A DNA stretch of 64,000 bases from Euglena gracilis. Taxonomy: Eukaryota. The DNA is taken from the NCBI GenBank assembly GCA_039621445.1, contig CP154954.1, positions 16,956,589 to 17,020,588 of the forward strand. The letters run 5' to 3'. The notes below the pieces were generated by a model. It was not told where the DNA came from and searched no databases. It saw nothing but the letters and a program-made list of their open reading frames with translations. A program made the position numbers and the translations under genes. Of this stretch, positions 590-64,000 are shown piece by piece (position 1 is the stretch's first letter; the number at the start of each line of letters is the position of its first letter).

Positions 590-3500
590 CTCTACGAGGG
601 CAAAGGACAACGTCGGCTTCCAGTGGGGGACCCAGACGTCTGGCACCACGTCCTCCACGGCAGGCACGTCCTCAGCGGCAGTATCCCCAAACAGGTGCCG
701 GGTTGCAGCAGCCGCCTGTGCAACGTAAACAGCAACAAAAATAAAACTCCATTTGACACGGGGTTCGCGCTGCACACTTTGAAACACACATTAAATTACT
801 TTTGGGGGTTGGTGATGGATTATGAGGCTACGAACACCAGAAACTGGCGAGCAAACCTACAACCGAGAGGGTAAAGAAGGTGGGTCGAAACCTCAACATC
901 GGCCTCAGAGCCCGCATTCTCTGAAAAGGGTACTCTCAGGCAGTCTCCTTCGCACTTCACGCGTAAAAGTGGACCTTGTGTATGCAATTGTGCAACTAAC
1001 AGGAAGAAAAAGCGGTTTTAGGGGTCGCTTTCAGGGGTTTTTGAACCTAAGTTAGTCCAAAACATCGAGTTTGTTGTGGTGGATGACTCCCAATGCGTCA
1101 ACAAAAGAAGGCTGTCAGAAACAGGGGTAGGTCTGGAAGTACAAAAAAAATGTTTTGTGGTGGTTGGTTTGAATGCTGACCTTCAAATTTGTGATCACTG
1201 CTGGCACGACGCGCCTTCTGTTGCCGAAGATGTGGACCGGTTTTTCTGCCCCCTTTTCCAGAATGGGTTTTATGTGTCCAAGACAGCCTTCAATAAGCAT
1301 GTTTCATGTTTTGGTACGGCCTACGCCCCCATACAGCATTTGAACAACAATTAGATTGTTCCAGCAGGTGATGGAAGGACGTCAGAATTACCAGGGGTTT
1401 TTTGCACAAAAAGGTGTATTGGTTCACCAAAATATGTGGTCGCTTTCTGTTGTTGGTCAGACATGTAAATGAGATGTTTGACGAAGTGGGTGCAACAACC
1501 CTTCTTTGTCAGGCTGCGAGACAGCGGTACTCTTTTCATCTTTGACGGACGGATGGACAATGTGTAAGATGGTATAAAATGCCTGTGATGGGAACGTCAG
1601 AACGTAGCAGTTGGTTTAATTGTGCCTGTATTTCTTTGAAGGGAAACAACTCAGAAAATGGTTCCCGATGTGGAATGCGGGAATGGGGATGCGGGGATTT
1701 CAAGCACTTGCCCTTTGCCAGACACATCGCCATTGAAAAACAGAAGCACTTCGGGAAATTGTCAAAGAGAGTGGCATGGCTGACATTCTCAACAGTTCAG
1801 CAGCATATTTCAAATTTCAGGCATCTCACTTTTTATTTACCGGCACCGCACCCCTCACTGGCCCTGCAATATAACCCCTGATTTTTGCGGACATGACGCT
1901 GCGCGCAAATTCTGCGTGCCGGCAGGACCTGTCTTGAGGCACCACAGTGAGGACAAAAAAGTTCAAAACAAAGCACGCAGCACGTGGGCAACAATGAAAA
2001 AAAAGAAAACAAAAAGCAGGTGTCCTTGTTTTGACTGAGGTGTGAGTACATGACACAAAGACCTTTTTTTTCCACCATGTAAGGGAACATGGAAAATAGA
2101 CCTGGAACTCACTTGAGTGCTTTGCGAGTGACGAAGCCGAGTCATCCAACGCTCAGTCACTCTGTCACTCTGCAAACACCTCTGTCCTCTGCCCTTCTTT
2201 CACGCCTCTCAACCCCATGGATTATCTTCCCTGATCCCTGTCTTGTGGTCCAGATGCCCATGCAGGAAAACACAACAAAAAATGGGGGTCCAGATTTCCA
2301 CAAAGGGGGTGCTTCAAAAAGGGGCGTGCTTCGAGGGTGCCGGTGTCTTTTTAGGGGGTGTTTGCATGTGTTTGAACTCATGCTCGGGCCGCGAAACATC
2401 GTCAAAAACGAGCCACCAGGGTGAAAACCCCAAAAAGTCATCTGCCAAAGGGACATCTGCAAAAAAAAAAAAAAACACAAAACAGGAAATGTTACTTCTT
2501 TCAACAAGGATTAGAGTGCAAACAAAAAAGTCATTTGCAAAAGAATTGCTAAAAAGTGCGAAGTAGGACACCAGAAAAATTACCCAACCCAACCACCAGG
2601 TGGCAAAGCCAGTGGCCCAGACTGGGGAGAACCAGTGCTTATGGTGATTGGGTGTGGGAGATGGAGGGCTGGTGGCAAGCGGAAGCAAAGGGTTCGGGCA
2701 CACTCCTGTTTGGGCAAGAACTTCACCAACGGGTGCACAGCGTGTAGACAGGCTATCTTTCCTGATGGGGAGAACCCCTTTTTGACAGAAGTGGTTCTCA
2801 AAAAGAATTGCATTCACAAAACAGAAGAAGCTATTTTGAGGAACCACACAAATCTCTGGCTAATTTCTGGCAAATGGTGTATTTTGCAAGAGGAGAAAAT
2901 GTGGCTCCCCCCCTTAATTGTTTTCCCTGACGATTGGGGGGTGGGTGCTAAATTCCCAATGAAACCAAATGCGCGCGGAAGATTCTTTCCTAGCGCGCAA
3001 TTCTTTCCTAGCGCGCTGAAGGCGCCAGGAAAAAAGAGGCCGTTTGGGGGTGGGTTACTGACAACCCAACTTGTCACCAAGGAGGTCTGCGGAGCCCAAA
3101 GGGGTGACAAATAAGGATCACATTGCCGTTATTTTGATGGTTCTCATAAAATGCACAATTTTTCCGTATTGACCATTTTCAATGGAAACCGCACAATTTA
3201 TTCTTGGGGGGTTAAATGAAACAAAACCTGAGAGAGTTTTGTTTGTGGTAGACCCACATATCATAGAGGGACATGTTAAAGTGGGTTCAACAAGTTGGTG
3301 TCCACATCTAAAATTTCATTGACAAATCACATCTTCTTTAATTCAGAACAGGTCAAAATGAAATTTTCGAGGGTTTTACAGAATTAATGGAAAGTTCTGC
3401 AGAATGGTTGAGGTGTTGCAAAAAAATTGGCGCCTCCGCTAGCAAATTCCCCCCCCCCACACATGGGGTGCTTCCAAGGGAGATGGCAAAGTGGATGAGT

Positions 3501-6083
3501 TTTTGGATGTGCCTGGAGAGAGGGGAGGGGCCTGCCCCCCCCCCCCCCCCGGACCCCCCACCTCCCCCTCCCTCCAAATAACAGTCAACAAGCCTCTTTC
3601 AGACGTATTTTTGTGCCCCATTACAGACACAACATTTCACAGCGATTCCGAACATGCAAAAAAGGAACAAGAAAAATTTGTTCAGGTTTACCCCCCCACA
3701 AAGGCAAGAAAACGGGGGCAATTTTTGCAATATATGGGTTTTTCGTCTGTTCTTAGCAGATTCTTTATTCGTTCCATTCCGGGAAGAAATGTGATCAATT
3801 TTGAGTCATCATTGTGGTCCAATTCAAAAGTTCGCTTTTGAAAATTATGTGGAGCCAAGAAGGATCTGTGAGAAAATAATTTTGTTCGCATACGATTCCA
3901 GGGCCAATAGGAAAAATTTGGGACGCATGATTTTGTTGTAAAGCTAACTTGCATCACTTGTGTGAAAACAATTTTTCGAGGGGCAATAAAACAAAGCAAA
4001 TTTCCTATGTGAAATGGCAGAATTTTTCATTTTCTCTCAAGCAAAGCCAAGCCGACATACCTCCATCAGAAGCTAGAATGGGAACAATGAATTGAAAGAA
4101 ATACCCTTGGTACTCGAGAAATGCCTGGATGGATGATCCTCTTCTCATCCGCGGCGGCCAACTCCGTCCCCTGCTGCGCAACGAAGATGTGCATCCAGAG
4201 TGACCCGTTGCCAGGGCTGCACAGGAGGGCCAGCTGGGGGTCCCCCCCCCCTATCTCTGGAAAAAAAATCAGTTTGCAAACTGCCCCCCCCCCCGCCGCC
4301 CAAAAAAAACAATGGATCATGCGAACCTCACAAAAGCAAAATTGCGCACTCAGAATGGCATCACCATTTGCAATTATGTGCTTTCGCCGTTCACAACAGC
4401 ACAACCTAATGTTTTGTGTGCATTTGTCACCAGGGAGGTGGGGGTCGGATCCCCCCTTCCTAGGGTCCCCACCACCACCACAAGAAATCCCATTCAGCCC
4501 TGCCCGTTACCCGCCAAGTACTCATCCACAGGGACCTCCAGCTGGTAGGTGTGCTGCGCCTGGTCCTGTGCGGAGTCGAAGACGACCACATCACGCCAGA
4601 CGTGCAGGCTTGGGTCACCGAAGTCGACGGCCGTCCAGTTCGGGTCTCGTTTTAAGAAGAGCTGGACGTCCAATGACGGCAGAGCGGTGCGGCAAGAGTT
4701 ACCCCCCAAACAGGAGCGTGCAGGGAAAAAACCCGGGGAGTCCAGCCAGCCGGCTGGGAAAAGGTGCTGCCTGGAAGGGGAAAAAGTGAAAGCTAGCTGG
4801 ACCTCTCCCCCAGGGGTCGGCTCCCCTCTGGCTTAAGAAACCCCCTGCCCCCAAAACCCAAGACTTTTGACAGGCGAGGTGGGACGTTCGCAACACGACC
4901 TCGCATCACAAGGTCCTTGTGTTTGCAAAAGTAATGCAAAAGTCGTGCAAACGTATTTGCAAATTTTTTTTCTGCACGCTAGTTATGCAAAGTTGAACGT
5001 CCCCATTTTTGCGTTTCTTTGGAAGTCATTTCCGCTGGAAGACGTAGAAGACGCAAACAGAGATGCCTGCAGCTTGGGGCTTTGGTGTAATTTCCTTCCG
5101 AAAACAAGGAAGCAAGGCCCAGGAGGAGGAGGAAACATTTTGCCAAATCATTTCCAACAGAAAATTAGAATATCCAGAATGAATTTCCAATTATCAAGAA
5201 TAAACCTGAAAAAAAAAATTGCAGCCTGCCCCCCCCCACCGACCCCACAACCTCTGACCGGGGGGGGGGGGTGTTCACGCACCCCCTGACCTGCAACCCC
5301 CGACCAGGGGCTGGTTGTACGACCAGGTGCCAAAAACCCCTATTTTTGCTACGTCAGCTACAATCCCCCAACCACGGGGGTGGGGGGGGGGGGTCGTACG
5401 CACCCCCATGGGCAAGGGAAGGGGGTGTCAACAGTCATCAAAAGATACCATTCCTTTCCATGGTTCTTCCAGGCTGCATGCCACAAAATGCTTTGTTAAA
5501 AAAAAAAGTTGTGACCCTAAATTTTCATCAAATCAAAGGCCAAATTTTTTGAGAGGTTAGACGGTCCATTCCTCTGCAACAAACCAATCCAGTGTTCCAA
5601 GCAAAGAAACCATTTGAGCAGGGGGGAATGTGTCAGCCTGGCCTTGCGAAAAAATGCACAAAAATGTGCAAATATGCCAAAAAAATAAGCCAAATGTACA
5701 AAGTCTGGGAGAAAGTGCAGATTCAAAAAAATGCAAAAATTACCCAAAACACACGCAAAAATGGCAGCAAATTTATAACAATCATATGAAATTCTAAAAA
5801 AAGTTTCAATTTCAAAAAAAAAAAAAAAAATTGGACAAACCACAAAAAAAATGCGCCAAGGAGCAAGAAAATGAACTAAAAAAAAAAACTACAAAAATGC
5901 GCGAAAAAATGCGAATAAAAATGAGAAAAAAAATGCGAACACCTTCCCTCCCCTTTATTGAGCTGAAATGTGAACACCAGCCTGACTGAGGCACCCTTCG
6001 CAAATAATGGTTCATACTCTCGTTGAACCGGTGATGGCTGGTGATTTGGGTTGTAGCGGCGTTCTCCAGCAGGTTCCTTTCTT
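590..6083 (-). CDS. CLPTM1: Second copy (paralog or allele) of five CLPTM1-like exons: 6083-5988, 4674-4506, 4206-4131, 2743-2706, 715-590; runs off the left edge
   Basis: Same exon lengths and junctions as 46907-41509; a few substitutions (GDTAA/GDAAA, PAV/PAM, DPS/DPN, HTY/HTH); no frameshifts in these exons. Confidence 0.82.
1115..1760 (-). pseudogene. Possible degenerate Mutator (MULE)-like transposase fragment; second copy about 42040-42690
   Basis: Interrupted frames read ...CWNNLIVVQMLYGGVGRTKT*NMLIEGCLGHIK, resembling the RTNNxxEGxH motif. Stops and frameshifts present. Confidence 0.3.
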
Positions 6084-14959: not shown

Positions 14960-14972
14960 NNNNNNNNNNNNN
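14960..14972. other. Assembly gap (13 N)
   Basis: Run of 13 N. Confidence 0.99.
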
Positions 14973-17260: not shown

Positions 17261-46907
<29,647 letters not shown>

Positions 46908-57107: not shown

Positions 57108-60100
57108 CTTAGACGGCCGTAACTGGACACTAAAAAATCAAATTGCGCCTGGAATTGTGGCTTGAGAAAATAGCCCTAAAAAGGGCCTTTCGCAAAATGT
57201 CAATCTTCAAAGCCCAAATAACGCCACAACTTCACCATAGAAAGCAAAATTCTTGGAAATCTTTTTGTCACAAAACCCCATGATTTCTGCGGAATTAGCT
57301 TCGAACTTGGGGAAATGAGGTTCAAAAAAGGATCAACATAGGTAGTTCAAGCGCAAATGCGCCTGAAATATCTTATTTTCAATCAGACAAGATCATTACC
57401 TGAGTTATGTTGTTGGATGGGGCTTCACTCAAATCCAGGCGCAATTGCGTCTGAACCATAGCTGGCGTTTTTTTTTGTTTTTTTTTATAAAAAAAAACGT
57501 TTTTTTTGTTTTTTATTAAAAAAACGAGCAAAAAAAAACGGCAAAAAAAAACAAAGGGGAAAATGATGGTCCAAATTTTGCCTTTGATTGCAAGCGTGAA
57601 CCAATCTTAGCTCAAATGACTTGAAAACCAATACTTTTAGTTGTCTTCAACAAGAATGGTCAAAATAGGGCATTTTTCTGCCATTTTGGGATGTTTCAAC
57701 TTGAAACATCCCAAATTAGGTGTCTTTCTCTGACCGAGGATGGGCAAAAAAAAGCTAAAATTAAAGGCAAATTTTTTTTTGCCCTGGACCCTCAATGGCG
57801 TTTTTTTTTGTTTTTTTGAAAAAAAACATGTTTTTTTTAAAAAAACCGTGTTTTTTTTTGACTTCGTTTTAAACGAAGTGCCAGCTATGGCCTGAACGCA
57901 CTCTGAAAAGAGGCTAATTTGGTGGTCCCCAAAAAAGATGAAAAAGGGTAAAACAACGTTCAAAACAAGCTCGGAGTATGCAGTCAGGAGTCTTGAATGC
58001 AAGCACTTACTTCACTGACTCAACAGACTATTTTGTGGACGCCCCCGTACAAATTAATGCACATTAGCACCAAAAAATGCTGTCATGTTTTTTGGAGCCC
58101 TATCACATCGAAATTTGAAAAAGACAAGTGACGATAAAAAAATTCATATACGTCAGATTAACTCCGAATTGACATTTCAAAAAAACGGGACGTAATTGTG
58201 GCTGACAAGAAAATTCCAGGCGCAAATGCGCCTGGATCTTCGGAGAAACGGCCCTTTTTGGCCTTACCCAGACAACCATCCAGGCGCAAATGCGCCTGGA
58301 TGGTTGCCAAAACAATTGTCAATTCACTTTAGATGAAGAATTCATTTGTCGAGATGTGAATGCCACCCTGTATGAACTGATTTTTGTATGTGACCGCTTT
58401 TTAACTTCAGTGGTTGTGTGGCAGATGTTTAGAAATACATTGACCAAACTTAGACGGCCATAACTGCACACTTTTATTCGAAAAAATTGGTCAAAATTTT
58501 GGCCTAAAACGGGTTTTCTAGGAACACTTTTGAAAAAATTCCAGGCGCATTTGCGCCTAAACCCAATTTTAAAAATTTCCACAGAGTGTCATTAAACTGT
58601 ATCTTTTTCAAGGGTTCCAGGCGCAATTGCGCCTGGAACCACCCAGAAACAGGCAAAAAAGGACCAATAATTTCACCCCAGACAGTTTTTGTCTTTGAGC
58701 AAAACCAATTGGCAAAGAATAAATATTTTGGAAAATACACACAGTGATCTATTGTTGTTTTGTCAAGGGGTGTCTCCCGAATATGTTTTTCAAGGTATTT
58801 TTGGCATCATCAAAAAAGTCCTTTGGGCGCATTTGCGCCTGGAATACCTCTCAATACACCAAACAGTGGTGATGAAAGGCGAGAATGTTCGCGAGAGGCA
58901 TCAACATTATTTTGCCAAGTGTGTCTCTTTTTATAAATCTTTTTTTCATCAACATGCAAAGTTCATTCTTCGGCAAAGTCCTTCTACTCCGTGCGTGAGG
59001 TGCCTTTGCCAAGGTTTGTAGGTGAGTGCAGAAAAATAACAGCAAGGGAAGTAGTTGAATCAATTTTTTGAAGGGTAGTGTTTGTTCTTCTTCAAAGCTG
59101 AAGTGTTTTGTAGTTTCCATTTTGAAAATTGCATTTTTTTGTGTTGCAATTTGGTGAATGATGTTTGGGAATGGTGCTCAAAAACTGCGCCACCCTGTGT
59201 TGGTCCTGGCGCAATTGCGCCTGGAATTTCAAAAATGCAATATCAACCAAAGGTATTTTTTTTGAAGGAAATATTATCTCAAAATTTTACATACAAAGAC
59301 ACATTGCGGAACCACTTGGAGTTTGTTTCTTTGGAATTGCTACTGAGGCCTTTCTCACGCTTTGCTCCAGGCGCAAAAGCGCCTACACTATTGCCGAAAC
59401 GGGCGTCAGAGGCGTCCCGGTTTCATATTGGCAAACGCCTTTGACCCATCAAAGGTTTGCGTGGAAAATGATTTGAAACACATAGCAACGTTAAGCATCA
59501 GAAAACGGACAACGAAAGCTGAAAAATGTGCACATTGTTTTCCACATCTCCCCAGTTTTGACCATGTTAAGCTTTGAGACCTGATGCAATGGTGAAGGTA
59601 AAGAGAAGCCTATTTTTAGGACATTGTGGTTTTACGGAGAAAATGCTTCAACCTAACAACATTACAATGCACTTCCTCAATATGCTCCTTCCAAGTTTAT
59701 AGAAGCAATTCAACTGCTGCTGACTTTCATTCAAAACAGATCCATACCCGATGTAGAACACTGAATCAAAATTCTCAATAAGGGATGTATTTTTGGCTTA
59801 CCAGGAATTCCAGGCGCATTTGCGCATGGATCTTTTGAGAAATGCCCTTTTCTTGCCTTGTCCACGTGTTTCTCCAGGCGCAAATGCGCCTGGACAGTTG
59901 CCAAAACAGGCCAATGGTTAATTCAAATTCATGAACAGCACATTTTGTCAAGTTGCCATTGTCTCCCTGTGCTTTTTTTTGCATACCAATTTTTCCTTGC
60001 ATTTTTATGTGGCAAATGATTGGAAACACGTCGTTGACCAATTGGCAATTGGTTGTTTGAGGTTTGAGGCGCATTTGCGGCTGGAACAATGGTGGGAAAA

Positions 60101-61935
60101 AGTTTTGTTGAGGAAAGGAATTCAATCTCAAAGAACTACGTCTCAAACATACAATTTTTTTTGCTCTTGCAATGTGTACAAAATCTGATTTGGGCAATTG
60201 CTCTTGTCATTGACGAGGTGTTTAAAATCGTAAGTTTTTTCCCTTTTTTCGGGTTGCCTTGAAGAACGAAATTTGGTGTTGTTCATTGTTTTGTGTTGCA
60301 ACCATCTCATGTGCATTACGCAAGAATTTTACCTATGTTATTGCCAGGAGTCCATCAGATGTCCTGCTTCAAATGTGTATCTGGTACGTGTCGTTCACTT
60401 GCAGTTTTTTTTTATGCCAAAATTACGTTTTGTGAACTACCTATACGACCTCTCTGCTTTGTCAAATTGAGATTCCAATTCCATCCTGGCATTTATTTTG
60501 CATTTTGCTCAGAAACTTCCTCCAATAACCATAACATCAAAGAAACTGAGCTGTGGAAAATGGTATTTATTTTTCTGACTTCGGGCTTATTCTTCATTCC
60601 CATTTGGTTTCAGGCCATTTCTGAGATTTGAAAAAGAACCATTCAAAATCATTGTGTTCCGACAAACCACAAATCCTCTCTCAACATTCACCTTCCACAG
60701 AATTCATCAACCTCCATTCTCTCTTGCAGGTAATTTTTCTAAAGGATCCTGCCAAAACTGCCAAATCGCCAAAGCAGCAGAGCCCTGCGGAGGAGCGCAG
60801 GGAGGCTAAGAAAGGTTTGAACTTGTGCAATGTTGCCATCTGTCTCGGTCCAAGTTGTTCATGTTGCAAGTTGACGTTGTAGCAAACCGTTTTGACAGTT
60901 GTTTTCAATTCATTCTTTTGCACATTTGATTTTTTTCTAGTTATCACTTATCAAAACCCCGGATTTGGTCACGTAGCCCCTCGTCTCCAACTTTGTGCTC
61001 CCTAGAGAACAAATCCTTAAATGCTGAAGTTTTGCAGCTTTGGTCTTCTTTTCTCATGCTTTGCACATTAGAATCATTCACATATCTGGCTGTTTGGTAA
61101 CAGAATTGTGTTACGATTGGTGCACCTGGTTTCTGGTATATTGTGTTTTTATTTCTGCTTTATTGTGTGGGTCGGTGGCAAAATTCTTGAATGAGGACTA
61201 ACCTCTCAAATTGATTCTGATTTAAAACATGGTCAGGTGCGCCCACTTGAGACTGAGACGGTGCGGCTTTGTTTGCAGGACCTGGCCAGCAAGCTCGCCG
61301 GCGAACTGTTCGGTGATCCGTCACACTGTTTGGCAGGAGCCAAAATGTGTTCCATTTGAGAGTTGCGGATAGTGTGGTGCGTTTTTGAGAGTACTTACTT
61401 CAATAATTATTAACTTTATGTATCTGTAAATATCTGTAAAATTGTATTCTTGAATCATTCACGCCAAATTTTGTTCCTCAAGGTAACCCGAATTAAGGGA
61501 AAAAAACTTACGATTTTAAACACCTCGTCAATGACAAGAACAATTGCCCAAATCAGATTTTGTACACATTGCAAGAGCAAAAAAAATTGTATGTTTGAGA
61601 CGTAGTTCTTTGAGATTGAATTCCTTTCCTCAACAAAACTTTTTCATACCATTGTTCCAGCCGCAAATGCGCCTCAAACCTCAAACAACCAATTGCCAAT
61701 TGGTCAACGACGTGTTTCCAATCATTTGCCACATAAAAATGCAAGGAAAAATTGGTATGCAAAAAAAAGCACAGGGAGACAATGGCAACTCGACAAAATG
61801 TGCTGTTCATGAATTTGAATTAACCATTGGCCTGTTTTGGCAACTGTCCAGGCGCATTTGCGCCTGGAGAAACACGTGGACAAGGCAAGAAAAGGGCATT
61901 TCTCAAAAGATCTATGCGCAAATGCGCCTGGAATT
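57108..61935. repeat. Region with about 15 dispersed CCAGGCGCA-WW-TGCGCCTGG palindromes, starting at a CTTAGACGGCC terminus
   Basis: Copies near 57141, 57349, 57435, 58216, 58280, 58541, 58617, 58826, 59205, 59367, 59810, 59874, 60067, 61660, 61848, 61915; CTTAGACGGCC near 57108 and 58449. Confidence 0.8.
57457..57889. mobile_element. Second CATAGCTGG-family MITE, opposite orientation, 8-bp TSD
   Basis: GTCTGAAC|CATAGCTGG...CCAGCTATG|GCCTGAAC; body is the reverse-complement homolog of the ends of 54464-55360. Confidence 0.8.
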
Positions 61936-62007
61936 CCTGGTAAGCCAAAAATACATCCCTTATTGAGAATTTTGATTCAGTGTTCTACATCGGGTATGTA
62001 TCTGTTT
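59734..62007. repeat. Inverted repeat with arms of about 550 bp (59734-60280 and 61460-62007) and a 1.2-kb spacer
   Basis: ORF-track peptides at 59775-60197(-) and 61544-61966(+) are near identical, as is the DNA. Confidence 0.92.
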
Positions 62008-62477
62008 CAGGGTTGGAATTAAAACACCTGGGAGGAGTAAAATACAAACAAACTGTTTTAAACATTTTTCAAACAGTTTCCAACAATTCAGATCGCGAAA
62101 GACAGCCTGATTCCTAACTTCTGTGTCCCGGCGAAGTAACTGAAGATCAGGGACTGAATGGAACAAGCCTGGCCCATATCCTCTCCAGAATGGTATCTGT
62201 TTGCCTTGCCCCCAAATCAAACAACACCCCACCAGAAAGCACCCAAATCAATCCCCCAAATGAGCCCCAGCAGCCTCAAAAAAGTTCCATCTTCCAAATC
62301 AATCTCCCAAATGATCCCCAGCAGCCCCAAAAAAGTTCCATCTTCCAAATTCCAACCCCCATCTACAACACCCTGGAGGATGAAAACAGGAAGTCAGCTG
62401 ATTGGACAGTGGGTTTCCAGGAGCCCCCCCCCCTCTAGAGAGGGGAGCCCCCCCAGGGGGGACAAGGAAAGGAATTT

Positions 62478-63656
62478 TTGGAAATTAAGACAAAAAAGTT
62501 GGTCGACACCATGGGTCAGACCCCTGGGAGACATTTTAAAGGAAAGACTCACCGACAAAAAACACAAGTGGGAACACATGGGGAGGAGCTTGGACTTAAA
62601 GTTGTCCAAATGGGCCCCAAAGCCCTTCCAACCCCCACCCCCCCCCCGCCAGCGCCGGAACCGGGGACCATTATCCCTGGGGGGGGCCCAACCCAAAACA
62701 TTTCCCACAGAGACCCCCCACAGGGGGGCACCAGGGAGACCCCAACCCAGCAGGCCGCCCCCGCAGCCCACCCGAGGTGGGGACACCCACGGCCCAAAAC
62801 ACCACCTCAAAGCATCACAGTGACGGACCTCCGGGAAGTGGGCACGCAGTACACACCCCCCCCCCCCCCCCCGGAAGAAGACCACCAGCCAACCACAACC
62901 AGGACGAAAAGGAGGATCGCCCCCAACAGGTCGCCAACCCTCCCCCCCCTGTGGAGATATTATCCCAGGAAATGGGGCGACCCCCTCCATATTCCCATCG
63001 GTTTTGGCGGACAGTCTCTCTCACCCTCTTACTGGCAGCAGACGGACTCGGAGAGCGGGGAAGAGTATCCCGCCCGTGCGTGCACCCGAGCGGCACCCCC
63101 CCCCCCGGAGGGACAAACCAAGAGATTGCGCGGAAGAGCGGAGCTCCCCAAACCGGTCCTAGTCCAAAGCAGGATGTGGAGGCAGGAACTCTCCCGTTTC
63201 ACGGTATGGTGCAAGCGGGAACAATGTTTCCTCTTCCAAAAAGACTGCTGGAACAGGCACTTCAAGGTGCGCTGTGGACTCTGCCATCGCCTTCTGCCCA
63301 GCACACCCAAAACGCTGGATCAACATTATTTCGTGTGCACGATACAATTTATGCACGAGGCAGATGAAATTGAGTCGCTTGGACGGGGGACGGCAACTGC
63401 TGGGGGCTGTGTGGAGGAGAATCCGGGGCCGGCCTCAGCTGACGGGGACTACATGCTGGACGCCCCGTGGCAACGAAGAGTTGTCCAGAGGCTGAGCCCA
63501 GTTCTGGAGCCCGAAATAGACGCCTTCGCGGCTGCACATAACAGTCATTACCCTCACTTCTGGGATAAGAGCACAAATGCGCTTCTGCAGGACTGGAATC
63601 GGAGAAACCCGGTATGGATGAACCCGCCGTGGCACTCTTGCTGCCCCAGATTCTAA
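62478..63656 (+). CDS. Probable mobile-element polyprotein: Pro-rich region, Cys/His finger, 2A-like motif, N-terminal part of a Dam-like N6-adenine DNA methyltransferase
   Basis: 392-codon ORF containing CGLC-x13-HYFVC, GCVEENPGP (63405-63431), and DYML...EIDAFAAAHN...FW...NALLQDW...VWMNPPW. True start uncertain. Confidence 0.75.
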   Translation: MEIKTKKLVDTMGQTPGRHFKGKTHRQKTQVGTHGEELGLKVVQMGPKALPTPTPPPPAPEPGTIIPGGGPTQNISHRDPPQGGTRETPTQQAAPAAHPRWGHPRPKTPPQSITVTDLREVGTQYTPPPPPPEEDHQPTTTRTKRRIAPNRSPTLPPLWRYYPRKWGDPLHIPIGFGGQSLSPSYWQQTDSESGEEYPARACTRAAPPPPEGQTKRLRGRAELPKPVLVQSRMWRQELSRFTVWCKREQCFLFQKDCWNRHFKVRCGLCHRLLPSTPKTLDQHYFVCTIQFMHEADEIESLGRGTATAGGCVEENPGPASADGDYMLDAPWQRRVVQRLSPVLEPEIDAFAAAHNSHYPHFWDKSTNALLQDWNRRNPVWMNPPWHSCCPRF

Positions 63657-64000
63657 ACAAGCTCAAGGCAGAAGGAGGGCATGTCCTTCTCCTGTGTCCA
63701 TCCACGCGGCCAGAACTGCACCACCTCCTGCTGATTGCGGAAAACTCTCTCCGCTTACCTACCGGAACCCCATTGTATCGTGCCCAGGGGAATCTGCTTT
63801 TGGAACCGCCACCGTGGTCCACATGGGCCATGCGGATACACACGAAGCCCCTGTCCCGCACATCCGCCCGACCGACGTGTCGGATGACGCCACCGTATCA
63901 GCGGTCACGCCACACCAAAATCCCGCACATCAGGGCCACGGATCTGCCGCCCCCCCGAGGCATGGGTCGCCCTCGACTGCGCCAAAGGATCCTTCCGACT
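63638..64000 (+). CDS. Continuation of the Dam-like methyltransferase after a frameshift; open to the window edge
   Basis: LLPQILNKLKAEGGHVLLLCP...LRLPTGTPLYRAQGNLLLEPPPWSTWAMRI matches the usual post-NPPF/W helix-strand pattern of retroelement-associated adenine MTases; no stop to 64000. Confidence 0.7.
   Translation, partial: MLPQILNKLKAEGGHVLLLCPSTRPELHHLLLIAENSLRLPTGTPLYRAQGNLLLEPPPWSTWAMRIHTKPLSRTSARPTCRMTPPYQRSRHTKIPHIRATDLPPPRGMGRPRLRQRILPT

Follow-up and report, generated by a model that had tools for sequence, protein, structure and literature searches.

A 2A/StopGo-like peptide ahead of a Dam-like methyltransferase domain in a putative R2-like retrotransposon of Euglena gracilis

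At the end of a 64,000-nucleotide stretch of Euglena gracilis DNA (the window; assembly GCA_039621445.1, contig CP154954.1, forward-strand positions 16,956,589 to 17,020,588), a 2A/StopGo-like peptide stands directly before a predicted Dam-like methyltransferase domain. We consider it probable that the last 1.9 kb of the window (62120-64000) make up the 5' part of one copy of a retrotransposon present in many copies, in which StopGo would release the methyltransferase from a polyprotein. This reading is built on the motif, the domain, the conserved junction between the two, the clade in which the junction occurs and the architecture of the relatives, all of which are observed. It further entails, as parts of the same probable whole, that the ribosome would skip at the peptide, that the domain would transfer methyl groups to DNA, cDNA or an RNA:DNA hybrid, and that a reverse transcriptase (RT) and endonuclease would follow downstream of the visible part of this copy. 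A first-pass annotation had seen a Cys/His cluster, the string GGCVEENPGP and the methyltransferase motifs in one frame, and each of them was found where it had been placed.

The peptide, the domain and the junction between them

The string GGCVEENPGP lies exactly at 63402-63431, its core CVEENPGP at 63408-63431, and five residues (ASADG) separate it from the methyltransferase motifs DYML...IDAFA...FW...NPPW. It stands in frame between two modules of one open reading frame (ORF), 6 residues ahead of the start of the methyltransferase model, and the predicted break falls between Gly 63426-63428 and Pro 63429-63431. Across the six frames of the 64 kb, [VI]ExNPGP has this single occurrence, and none of 200 block shuffles gave one; the bare tetrapeptide NPGP appears two times, where the shuffles have a mean of 1.05. 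That Cys replaces the conserved Asp had been raised as a caveat, which published work softens. In Li et al. (2026, PMC12846837) the 2A core is widened to (D/G/C/N)(V/I)ExNPGP, natural Cys cases are over-represented in viral ORFs, where 85 are counted, and a natural Cys variant is more than 95% active in its native context in reticulocyte lysate. We judge a working StopGo at the window peptide to be fairly likely.

A near-identical Cys-type peptide, VGRGTLTAGGCVETNPGP, together with a second Cys-type 2A core, is found in a protein of 753 residues from a Logan assembly (P0060), so that the Cys variant appears to be maintained. After its 2A cores this protein continues into a coiled-coil-like and hydrophobic region; it is otherwise unrelated to the window protein, matches no Pfam family and has no homologue within its length range. 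It might belong to a related element as a further module.

The domain that follows the peptide, of ~140 residues, is predicted to be a Dam-like methyltransferase. The assignment made in the first-pass annotation is borne out by a match to Pfam Dam (PF05869; E=4e-9, 36.8 bits against a cut-off of 28.1), and NCBIfam TIGR01712 (phage N6-adenine methyltransferase) is matched with E=2.6e-6 and 27 bits, under its cut-off of 97. The catalytic (D/N)PP(Y/F/W) motif is present as NPPW at 63621-63632. In an alignment of 40 family sequences DAFA and NPP(F/W) do not vary, and PF05869 is matched by all but one of the 40 (39). The domain does not show the full-length Dam architecture of both catalytic subdomains plus a target-recognition region; eukaryotic DAMs are described as being without CD-1 and TR-1 (preprint 10.64898/2026.05.21.726589).

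How far the arrangement extends beyond this one copy was assessed with phmmer, using 168 residues from position 63150 as a query against 1.84 billion representatives (E<=1e-3). The search returned 83 proteins (best 3e-12, 43% identity), 82 of them with the methyltransferase domain. Just upstream of that domain, 26 of the 82 carry [NH]PG[PQ], while 32 have at least 20 residues of upstream room and no such motif, and 24 begin too near the domain to be judged. Between the final Pro and the domain, 17 of the 26 have 2-6 residues, and the window has 6. NPGP occurs 52 times, in 33 of the 83 homologues, against 0.48 expected from composition, and 43 of these occurrences fit (D/G/C/N)(V/I)ExNPGP; T2A-like GRGSLLTCGDVEENPGP strings are present in relatives.

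The alignment of the window with P0095 (residues 811-901, 41% identity, E=1e-17) is colinear through the 2A, and the window peptide aligns colinearly with GRG...VExNPGP of P0095 and P0003, sharing with the GRGxLLxCGD context of its relatives the GRG and a G before the core but not the Leu-Leu. A finger pattern followed 15-84 residues on by a 2A is seen in P0003, P0006, P0008, P0092, P0094 and P0095, and the order finger, 2A, methyltransferase is common to the window, P0003, P0006, P0008 and P0095; the likeness of the fingers is one of pattern, their sequence similarity being weak. A 2A before the methyltransferase is hence a junction that recurs in the family and not a product of chance, as had been proposed from its position on the domain boundary. 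A scan of metagenome contigs with the window protein gave no relative, and one with alignment A3 gave six loci (L001-L006), all of them devoid of a 2A core and of a match to the RT-endonuclease profile; a scan of viral contigs gave two distant loci, uninformative on the structure of the element.

Relatives and the type of host element

In a maximum-likelihood tree of the methyltransferase domain, comprising 56 rows with at least 100 positions of the family hidden Markov model (HMM) and leaving out shorter rows, second domains and the near-duplicate P0085, a 99/97 split separates 20 rows from 36. None of the 20 rows has a 2A; they include the Gypsy-like P0048 and rows of W(K/R)T..Y(A/T)V type, which we read from this signature as DIRS- or long terminal repeat (LTR)-like. 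The side of 36 rows holds the window and all 29 2A-bearing homologues; among the 2A-bearing rows of the tree, 19 have the 2A directly upstream of the domain, as in the window, and nine are counted as having another 2A. The same side also contains four uninformative rows and three without 2A (P0011, the long-branched P0068 and P0062).

What lies beyond the methyltransferase can be seen in those relatives that reach an RT, namely P0024, P0034, P0086, P0094, P0095, P0104 and P0105. The layout survey covered 123 proteins, with strict 2A cores in 21 and the methyltransferase in 11. P0095 encompasses, in one ORF of 2111 residues, a 2A, a finger, a 2A, the methyltransferase, a 2A, the RT and a C-terminal CCHC. 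P0086 runs 2A, 2A, methyltransferase, 2A, RT and C-terminal CCHC, and P0104 and P0105 run GVExNPGP, methyltransferase, 2A, 2A, RT and C-terminal CCHC. In P0024 and P0034 Dam is followed by a 2A, ~400 residues and RVT_1, without RNase H or integrase. When the RT and C-terminal region of P0034 served as the query, 164 homologues with RVT_1 only were retrieved, and at least four of them also carry PF05869.

P0034 alone matches no solved structure. A profile of 20 RT-C-terminal homologues finds its best matches in R2 proteins (9nl3 1e-32, 9dou 2e-32, 9nl2 4e-26), with L1 ORF2p far behind at ~1e-14, and in the second aligned stretch CCHC, RHN, PD and D-V-T-V of the profile line up with the endonuclease of R2 (9nl3). 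As the RT-endonuclease profile of the relatives best matches R2, and as the alignment with P0095 is colinear, the window is read as the front of an R2-like element; by analogy with these relatives, the host element is most likely an R2-like non-LTR retrotransposon. The idea of a mobile-element polyprotein with a StopGo placed to release a Dam-like methyltransferase, put forward in the first-pass annotation, thus gains support from the recurring junction, the 2A clade and the relatives with 2As flanking methyltransferase and RT in one ORF. The DIRS type that had also been raised is less likely than an R2-like one, given the RT and restriction-like endonuclease of the relatives. In the wider RT-endonuclease family, the Pfam lists of P0148, P0158, P0172 and P0189 include PHD, ubiquitin, SAND and PF09250, extra domains that suggest an RT family readily swapping its upstream modules.

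In the mechanism we propose, a single long ORF would be divided by StopGo/2A peptides, and its modules would be released by the ribosome as separate proteins. The window copy would contribute a proline-rich part with a CCHC finger, the peptide ...GGCVEENPG/P (the slash marking the break) and a Dam-like methyltransferase of ~140 residues; beyond the window, by analogy with the relatives, another 2A, an RT and a C-terminal CCHC with a PD-(D/E)xK restriction-like endonuclease would follow. At NPG/P the peptidyl-tRNA would be hydrolysed by the ribosome and translation would go on from Pro. One mRNA could in this way yield a finger protein, a free methyltransferase and an RT-endonuclease, an arrangement that would stand in for a separate ORF1.

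The copy in the window and its surroundings

The features of the copy are collected in the table below. The open plus-strand frame runs from stop to stop over 62439..63656 (405 codons), with a candidate start ATG at 62511, and passes through the proline-rich stretch, the Cys/His cluster, GGCVEENPGP and the Dam-like domain in this order. The earlier description as an intronless ORF has to be amended, as the frame breaks directly after NPPW. The N-terminal part (62439..63209) has no match in Pfam, and BLASTP of the N-terminal 321 residues against the fetched homologues gave no significant similarity. The final part of the Cys/His cluster, 63273-63338, is a C-x2-C-x12-H-x3-C finger. The start of the element is placed near 62120 because contigs of the DNA runs show a ~5-10 fold drop in depth near 62170 and have loose ends at 62119-62128. 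A tandem repeat with a 51-bp unit (2.1 copies, 62243-62350) lies within the putative leader. In relatives the next 2A falls in the counterpart of the tail 63876..64000 or just past it. The window contains no second copy of the element and no match to Rfam.

Features of the element copy at the end of the window
Feature	Position	Strand	Basis or remark
Putative 5' end/leader	62120..62438	+	boundary inferred; contains 51-bp tandem repeat
Proline-rich N-terminal part	62439..63209	+	ORF list; no recognisable domain
Cys/His cluster CKREQC...HYFVC	63210-63338	+	sequence
2A/StopGo-like peptide LGRGTATAGGCVEENPGP	63378..63431	+	sequence; core fits (D/G/C/N)(V/I)ExNPGP
Predicted Dam-like methyltransferase domain (DAFA ... 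NPPW ...)	63450..63875	+	split over two frames; profile matches
Frame break in methyltransferase domain	63633..63637	+	directly after NPPW
Tail beyond methyltransferase domain	63876..64000	+	ends with the window

Behind the frame break the reading frame meets a stop at 63654-63656, and the domain resumes in the +1 frame at 63638-63875. With an X set at the break, the window matches positions 1-141 of the 156 of the family HMM (E=1e-48), so that the whole methyltransferase domain is present at 63450-63875. At this point contigs of other sequencing runs lack two bases (depth 45.4/45.4 in X1, 527/1137 in X2 and 29/83 in X4). In-frame versions exist, and the window copy is therefore either defective or mis-assembled at the break.

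The stretch was found in 20 DNA runs from 15 studies, at 0.41-0.66 of sampled words, and contigs of three of these (X1, X2 and X4) were aligned to it. Many contigs fall at 99%, at 95-99% and at 90-95% identity to the stretch, which argues for a repeat family and not a single-copy gene. The 2A-methyltransferase junction lies on single contigs, in X1 (record 7, 63370-63709, 2 other letters) and in X4 (record 23, 63383-63501, 0 differences); the two differences listed for the X1 contig with the 2A and the start of the methyltransferase, 63544 and 63668, are both outside the motif. Finger and 2A are bridged by diverged contigs (X1 record 5, X2 records 11 and 12). As contigs bridge finger, 2A and methyltransferase, a chimeric join, against which the first-pass annotation had warned, is unlikely. 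Where contigs differ in length at 62859, 62990 and 63096, they do so by multiples of 3, as coding sequence would show. None of the RNA runs is listed as containing the stretch; in one of them (X21) 57 reads were found, all partial fits on the poly-C runs 62632-62650 and 62856-62873 and uninformative on expression.

These two poly-C runs lie inside the open frame, and contigs vary in length there; as low-complexity spots, they are where the frame of the assembly is least trustworthy. A further length variant, of 1 base, sits in a poly-C run at 63950 and accounts for ~1/3 to 1/2 of contig depth in the three runs. It shifts the frame at the end of the window, which then closes with a string that has KGSFRL as its last residues and may be where the context of the next 2A begins.

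Upstream, the element is adjoined by an inverted repeat at 59734-62007, whose 513-nt arms (59734-60246 and 61495-62007, 98% complementary) enclose 1248 nt. In the DNA runs the repeat reaches 5-10x the contig depth of the 2A-methyltransferase element, and it looks like a separate element, of foldback or long terminal-inverted-repeat type, that ends at 62007. Elsewhere in the window, pairs of long ORFs ~40.8 kb apart have almost the same translation (2314-2859 with 43137-43727, 4091-4789 with 45072-45722), so 2314-4789 and 43137-45722 may stem from one large duplication or belong to a second repeat family. At 40350-41450, ~1.1 kb of (CA)n microsatellite with an interleaved 15-bp minisatellite gives ORF translations of VLCCA repeats, and 13 N at 14960-14972 mark an assembly gap.

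Competing explanations and relation to known elements

A number of points weigh against reading the window as the front of an R2-like element with a working 2A and an active methyltransferase, and some of them favour other explanations. The match to PF05869 covers profile positions 30-71 of 169, that is 42 positions, and a profile of the methyltransferase family (A2) matches no solved structure. Dam domains of DIRS and LTR elements gave no N6-methyladenine (6mA) when placed in E. coli (preprint 10.64898/2026.05.21.726589). The copy is out of frame inside the methyltransferase, at 63633-63637, and the window ends 125 bases past this domain, leaving any RT, endonuclease or further 2A outside the view. 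Of the homologues, ten were looked up, and all ten come from metagenome or Logan assemblies. Internally, the side of the tree that holds the window is a polytomy. As to skipping, the peptide may have lost it through the replacement of Asp by Cys and the loss of Leu-Leu, in which case the element would make a finger-methyltransferase fusion or a lowered yield of what lies downstream. In P2A and F2A, substitutions of the Asp all leave less than 0.6 activity (preprint 10.64898/2026.09.24.754024) and are taken to abolish function in these contexts; because they fail there, the activity of a peptide depends on its own context, and that of the window peptide is without the Leu-Leu and Cys-Gly-Asp of its relatives' GRGxLLxCGD. 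In a large screen most retrotransposon 2A-like peptides lowered protein abundance instead of skipping cleanly (PMC13405545), and highly active peptides are recorded in 43 of 580 2A-bearing contigs associated with reverse-transcribing elements. Against a loss of skipping stand the over-represented and highly active natural Cys variants of Li et al. (PMC12846837), the nearly identical peptide and second Cys-type 2A in the unrelated P0060, and the X1 contig whose differences spare the motif. We regard such a loss as unlikely, though as an alternative to be taken seriously.

A different host, a DIRS- or LTR-type retrotransposon in which the 2A before the methyltransferase is incidental, appears improbable to us. 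In its favour, DIRS and Ty3/Gypsy-like elements are documented carriers of Dam-like domains (preprint 10.64898/2026.05.21.726589), the Gypsy-like P0048 and P0062 (RVT, RNase H, Dam) are among our matches, and P0062 even falls on the window's side of the tree. However, these two matches with RNase H both lack a 2A, as do all 20 rows of the DIRS/LTR-like side, and the 2A-bearing homologues that reach an RT all have RVT_1 without RNase H or integrase and an R2-like C-terminus. Within 62000-64000, a section that leaves most of the element outside the window, there is no tyrosine recombinase, RNase H or terminal repeat. Still less credible, to the point of being highly improbable, is an endogenised fragment of the polyprotein of a 2A-using RNA virus, or an assembly chimera. 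T2A-like strings in relatives and the absence of an RT from the part in view would agree with such an origin, but relatives carry the module and an RT in one ORF, and short contigs of three runs tile the region and span both joins, the stretch recurring across 20 DNA runs and 15 studies. A chance match of NPGP at a domain boundary, for which it could be said that the six frames of 64 kb should yield a plain NPGP about once, is ruled out for practical purposes by the shuffles, the recurrence of the junction in 26 of 82 homologues and the excess of NPGP among them, and its probability is negligible.

Beyond the single copy, we lean slightly towards the existence of a widespread and undescribed clade of R2-like non-LTR elements whose multi-2A polyprotein would release a Dam-like methyltransferase and a CCHC finger as substitutes for ORF1, with the host of the window carrying a sub-lineage of the rare Cys-type core. 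In R2 proteins the RT is fused to zinc-finger and Myb DNA-binding domains at the N-terminus; in the family described here the upstream position is taken instead by a CCHC finger and a Dam-like domain, which are delimited by 2As. It is nevertheless with R2-type proteins (PDB 9nl3, 9dou, 8gh6) that the RT and C-terminus of the relatives align best, including the CCHC, RHN, PD and D-V-T-V motifs.

The peptide itself has its closest precedent in L1Tc/Ingi, Rex1, CR1, L2 and Crack, where a peptide of the same D(V/I)ExNPGP type precedes the enzymatic part within a single long ORF and is regarded as a substitute for a separate ORF1, as in our proposal (Odon et al., 2013, PMC3708506). These are elements of the apurinic/apyrimidinic endonuclease (APE) type with one 2A near the N-terminus of ORF2p, whereas the relatives here have a restriction-like endonuclease and two to four 2As that bracket modules, and the window peptide has Cys at the Asp position. 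The methyltransferases of DIRS and DAM-LTR elements share PF05869, a truncated Dam core, NPP(F/W) and carriage by a retroelement (preprint 10.64898/2026.05.21.726589); there, however, it forms a fused part of pol in DIRS or Ty3/Gypsy-like elements, while in the window family the domain is set off by 2As and accompanied, in relatives, by an R2-like RT. SymbioLINE-DNMT of Symbiodinium likewise encodes a DNA methyltransferase as an upstream, ORF1-like product of a LINE-type element (de Mendoza et al., 2018, PMC5890265), but as a cytosine-5 enzyme in the separate ORF1 of an APE-type LINE, unlike the adenine-type domain that shares its ORF and is separated by 2As in the window family.

In the available text, the DAM preprint (10.64898/2026.05.21.726589) names DIRS, LTR and hepadnavirus-like carriers, has 'npgp' and 'skipping' nowhere and 'non-LTR' once, in the introduction; its one mention of LINEs concerns Euglena DAM-LTRs whose RTs branch with LINE/L1-like RTs. 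On the side of the 2A literature, PMC13405545 adds Dualen/RandI elements and deubiquitinase modules, and the available portions of this paper and of Rao et al. (2025, PMC12338488) are without the word 'methyltransferase', as is that of the 2A landscape preprint without 'methyl'. In full-text searches of the literature we found no paper that combines a 2A/NPGP, an adenine methyltransferase and a non-LTR retrotransposon, though the supplements of the DAM and 2A papers could hold such elements. Several 2As bracketing a Dam-like domain in an R2-like non-LTR element are a new combination of known parts.

If our reading is true, non-LTR elements would be the third class of retroelements to have captured a eukaryotic DAM domain. 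Both parts are topical, the 2026 survey of DAMs covering DIRS and LTR elements and the 2026 survey of retroelement 2As being, in its available text, without methyltransferases. StopGo sites that bracket the methyltransferase imply that it is free and is produced in parallel with the RT, and a free enzyme bears on what its role may be, whether in methylating cDNA, target DNA or RNA:DNA hybrids or in acting in trans. The 2A boundaries are natural limits at which to cut the domain for biochemistry, and the family provides 2A cores of Cys and Gly type that occur naturally in cellular and not viral surroundings. In such a scenario, LINEs with a restriction-like endonuclease would build an ORF1-like function by recoding.

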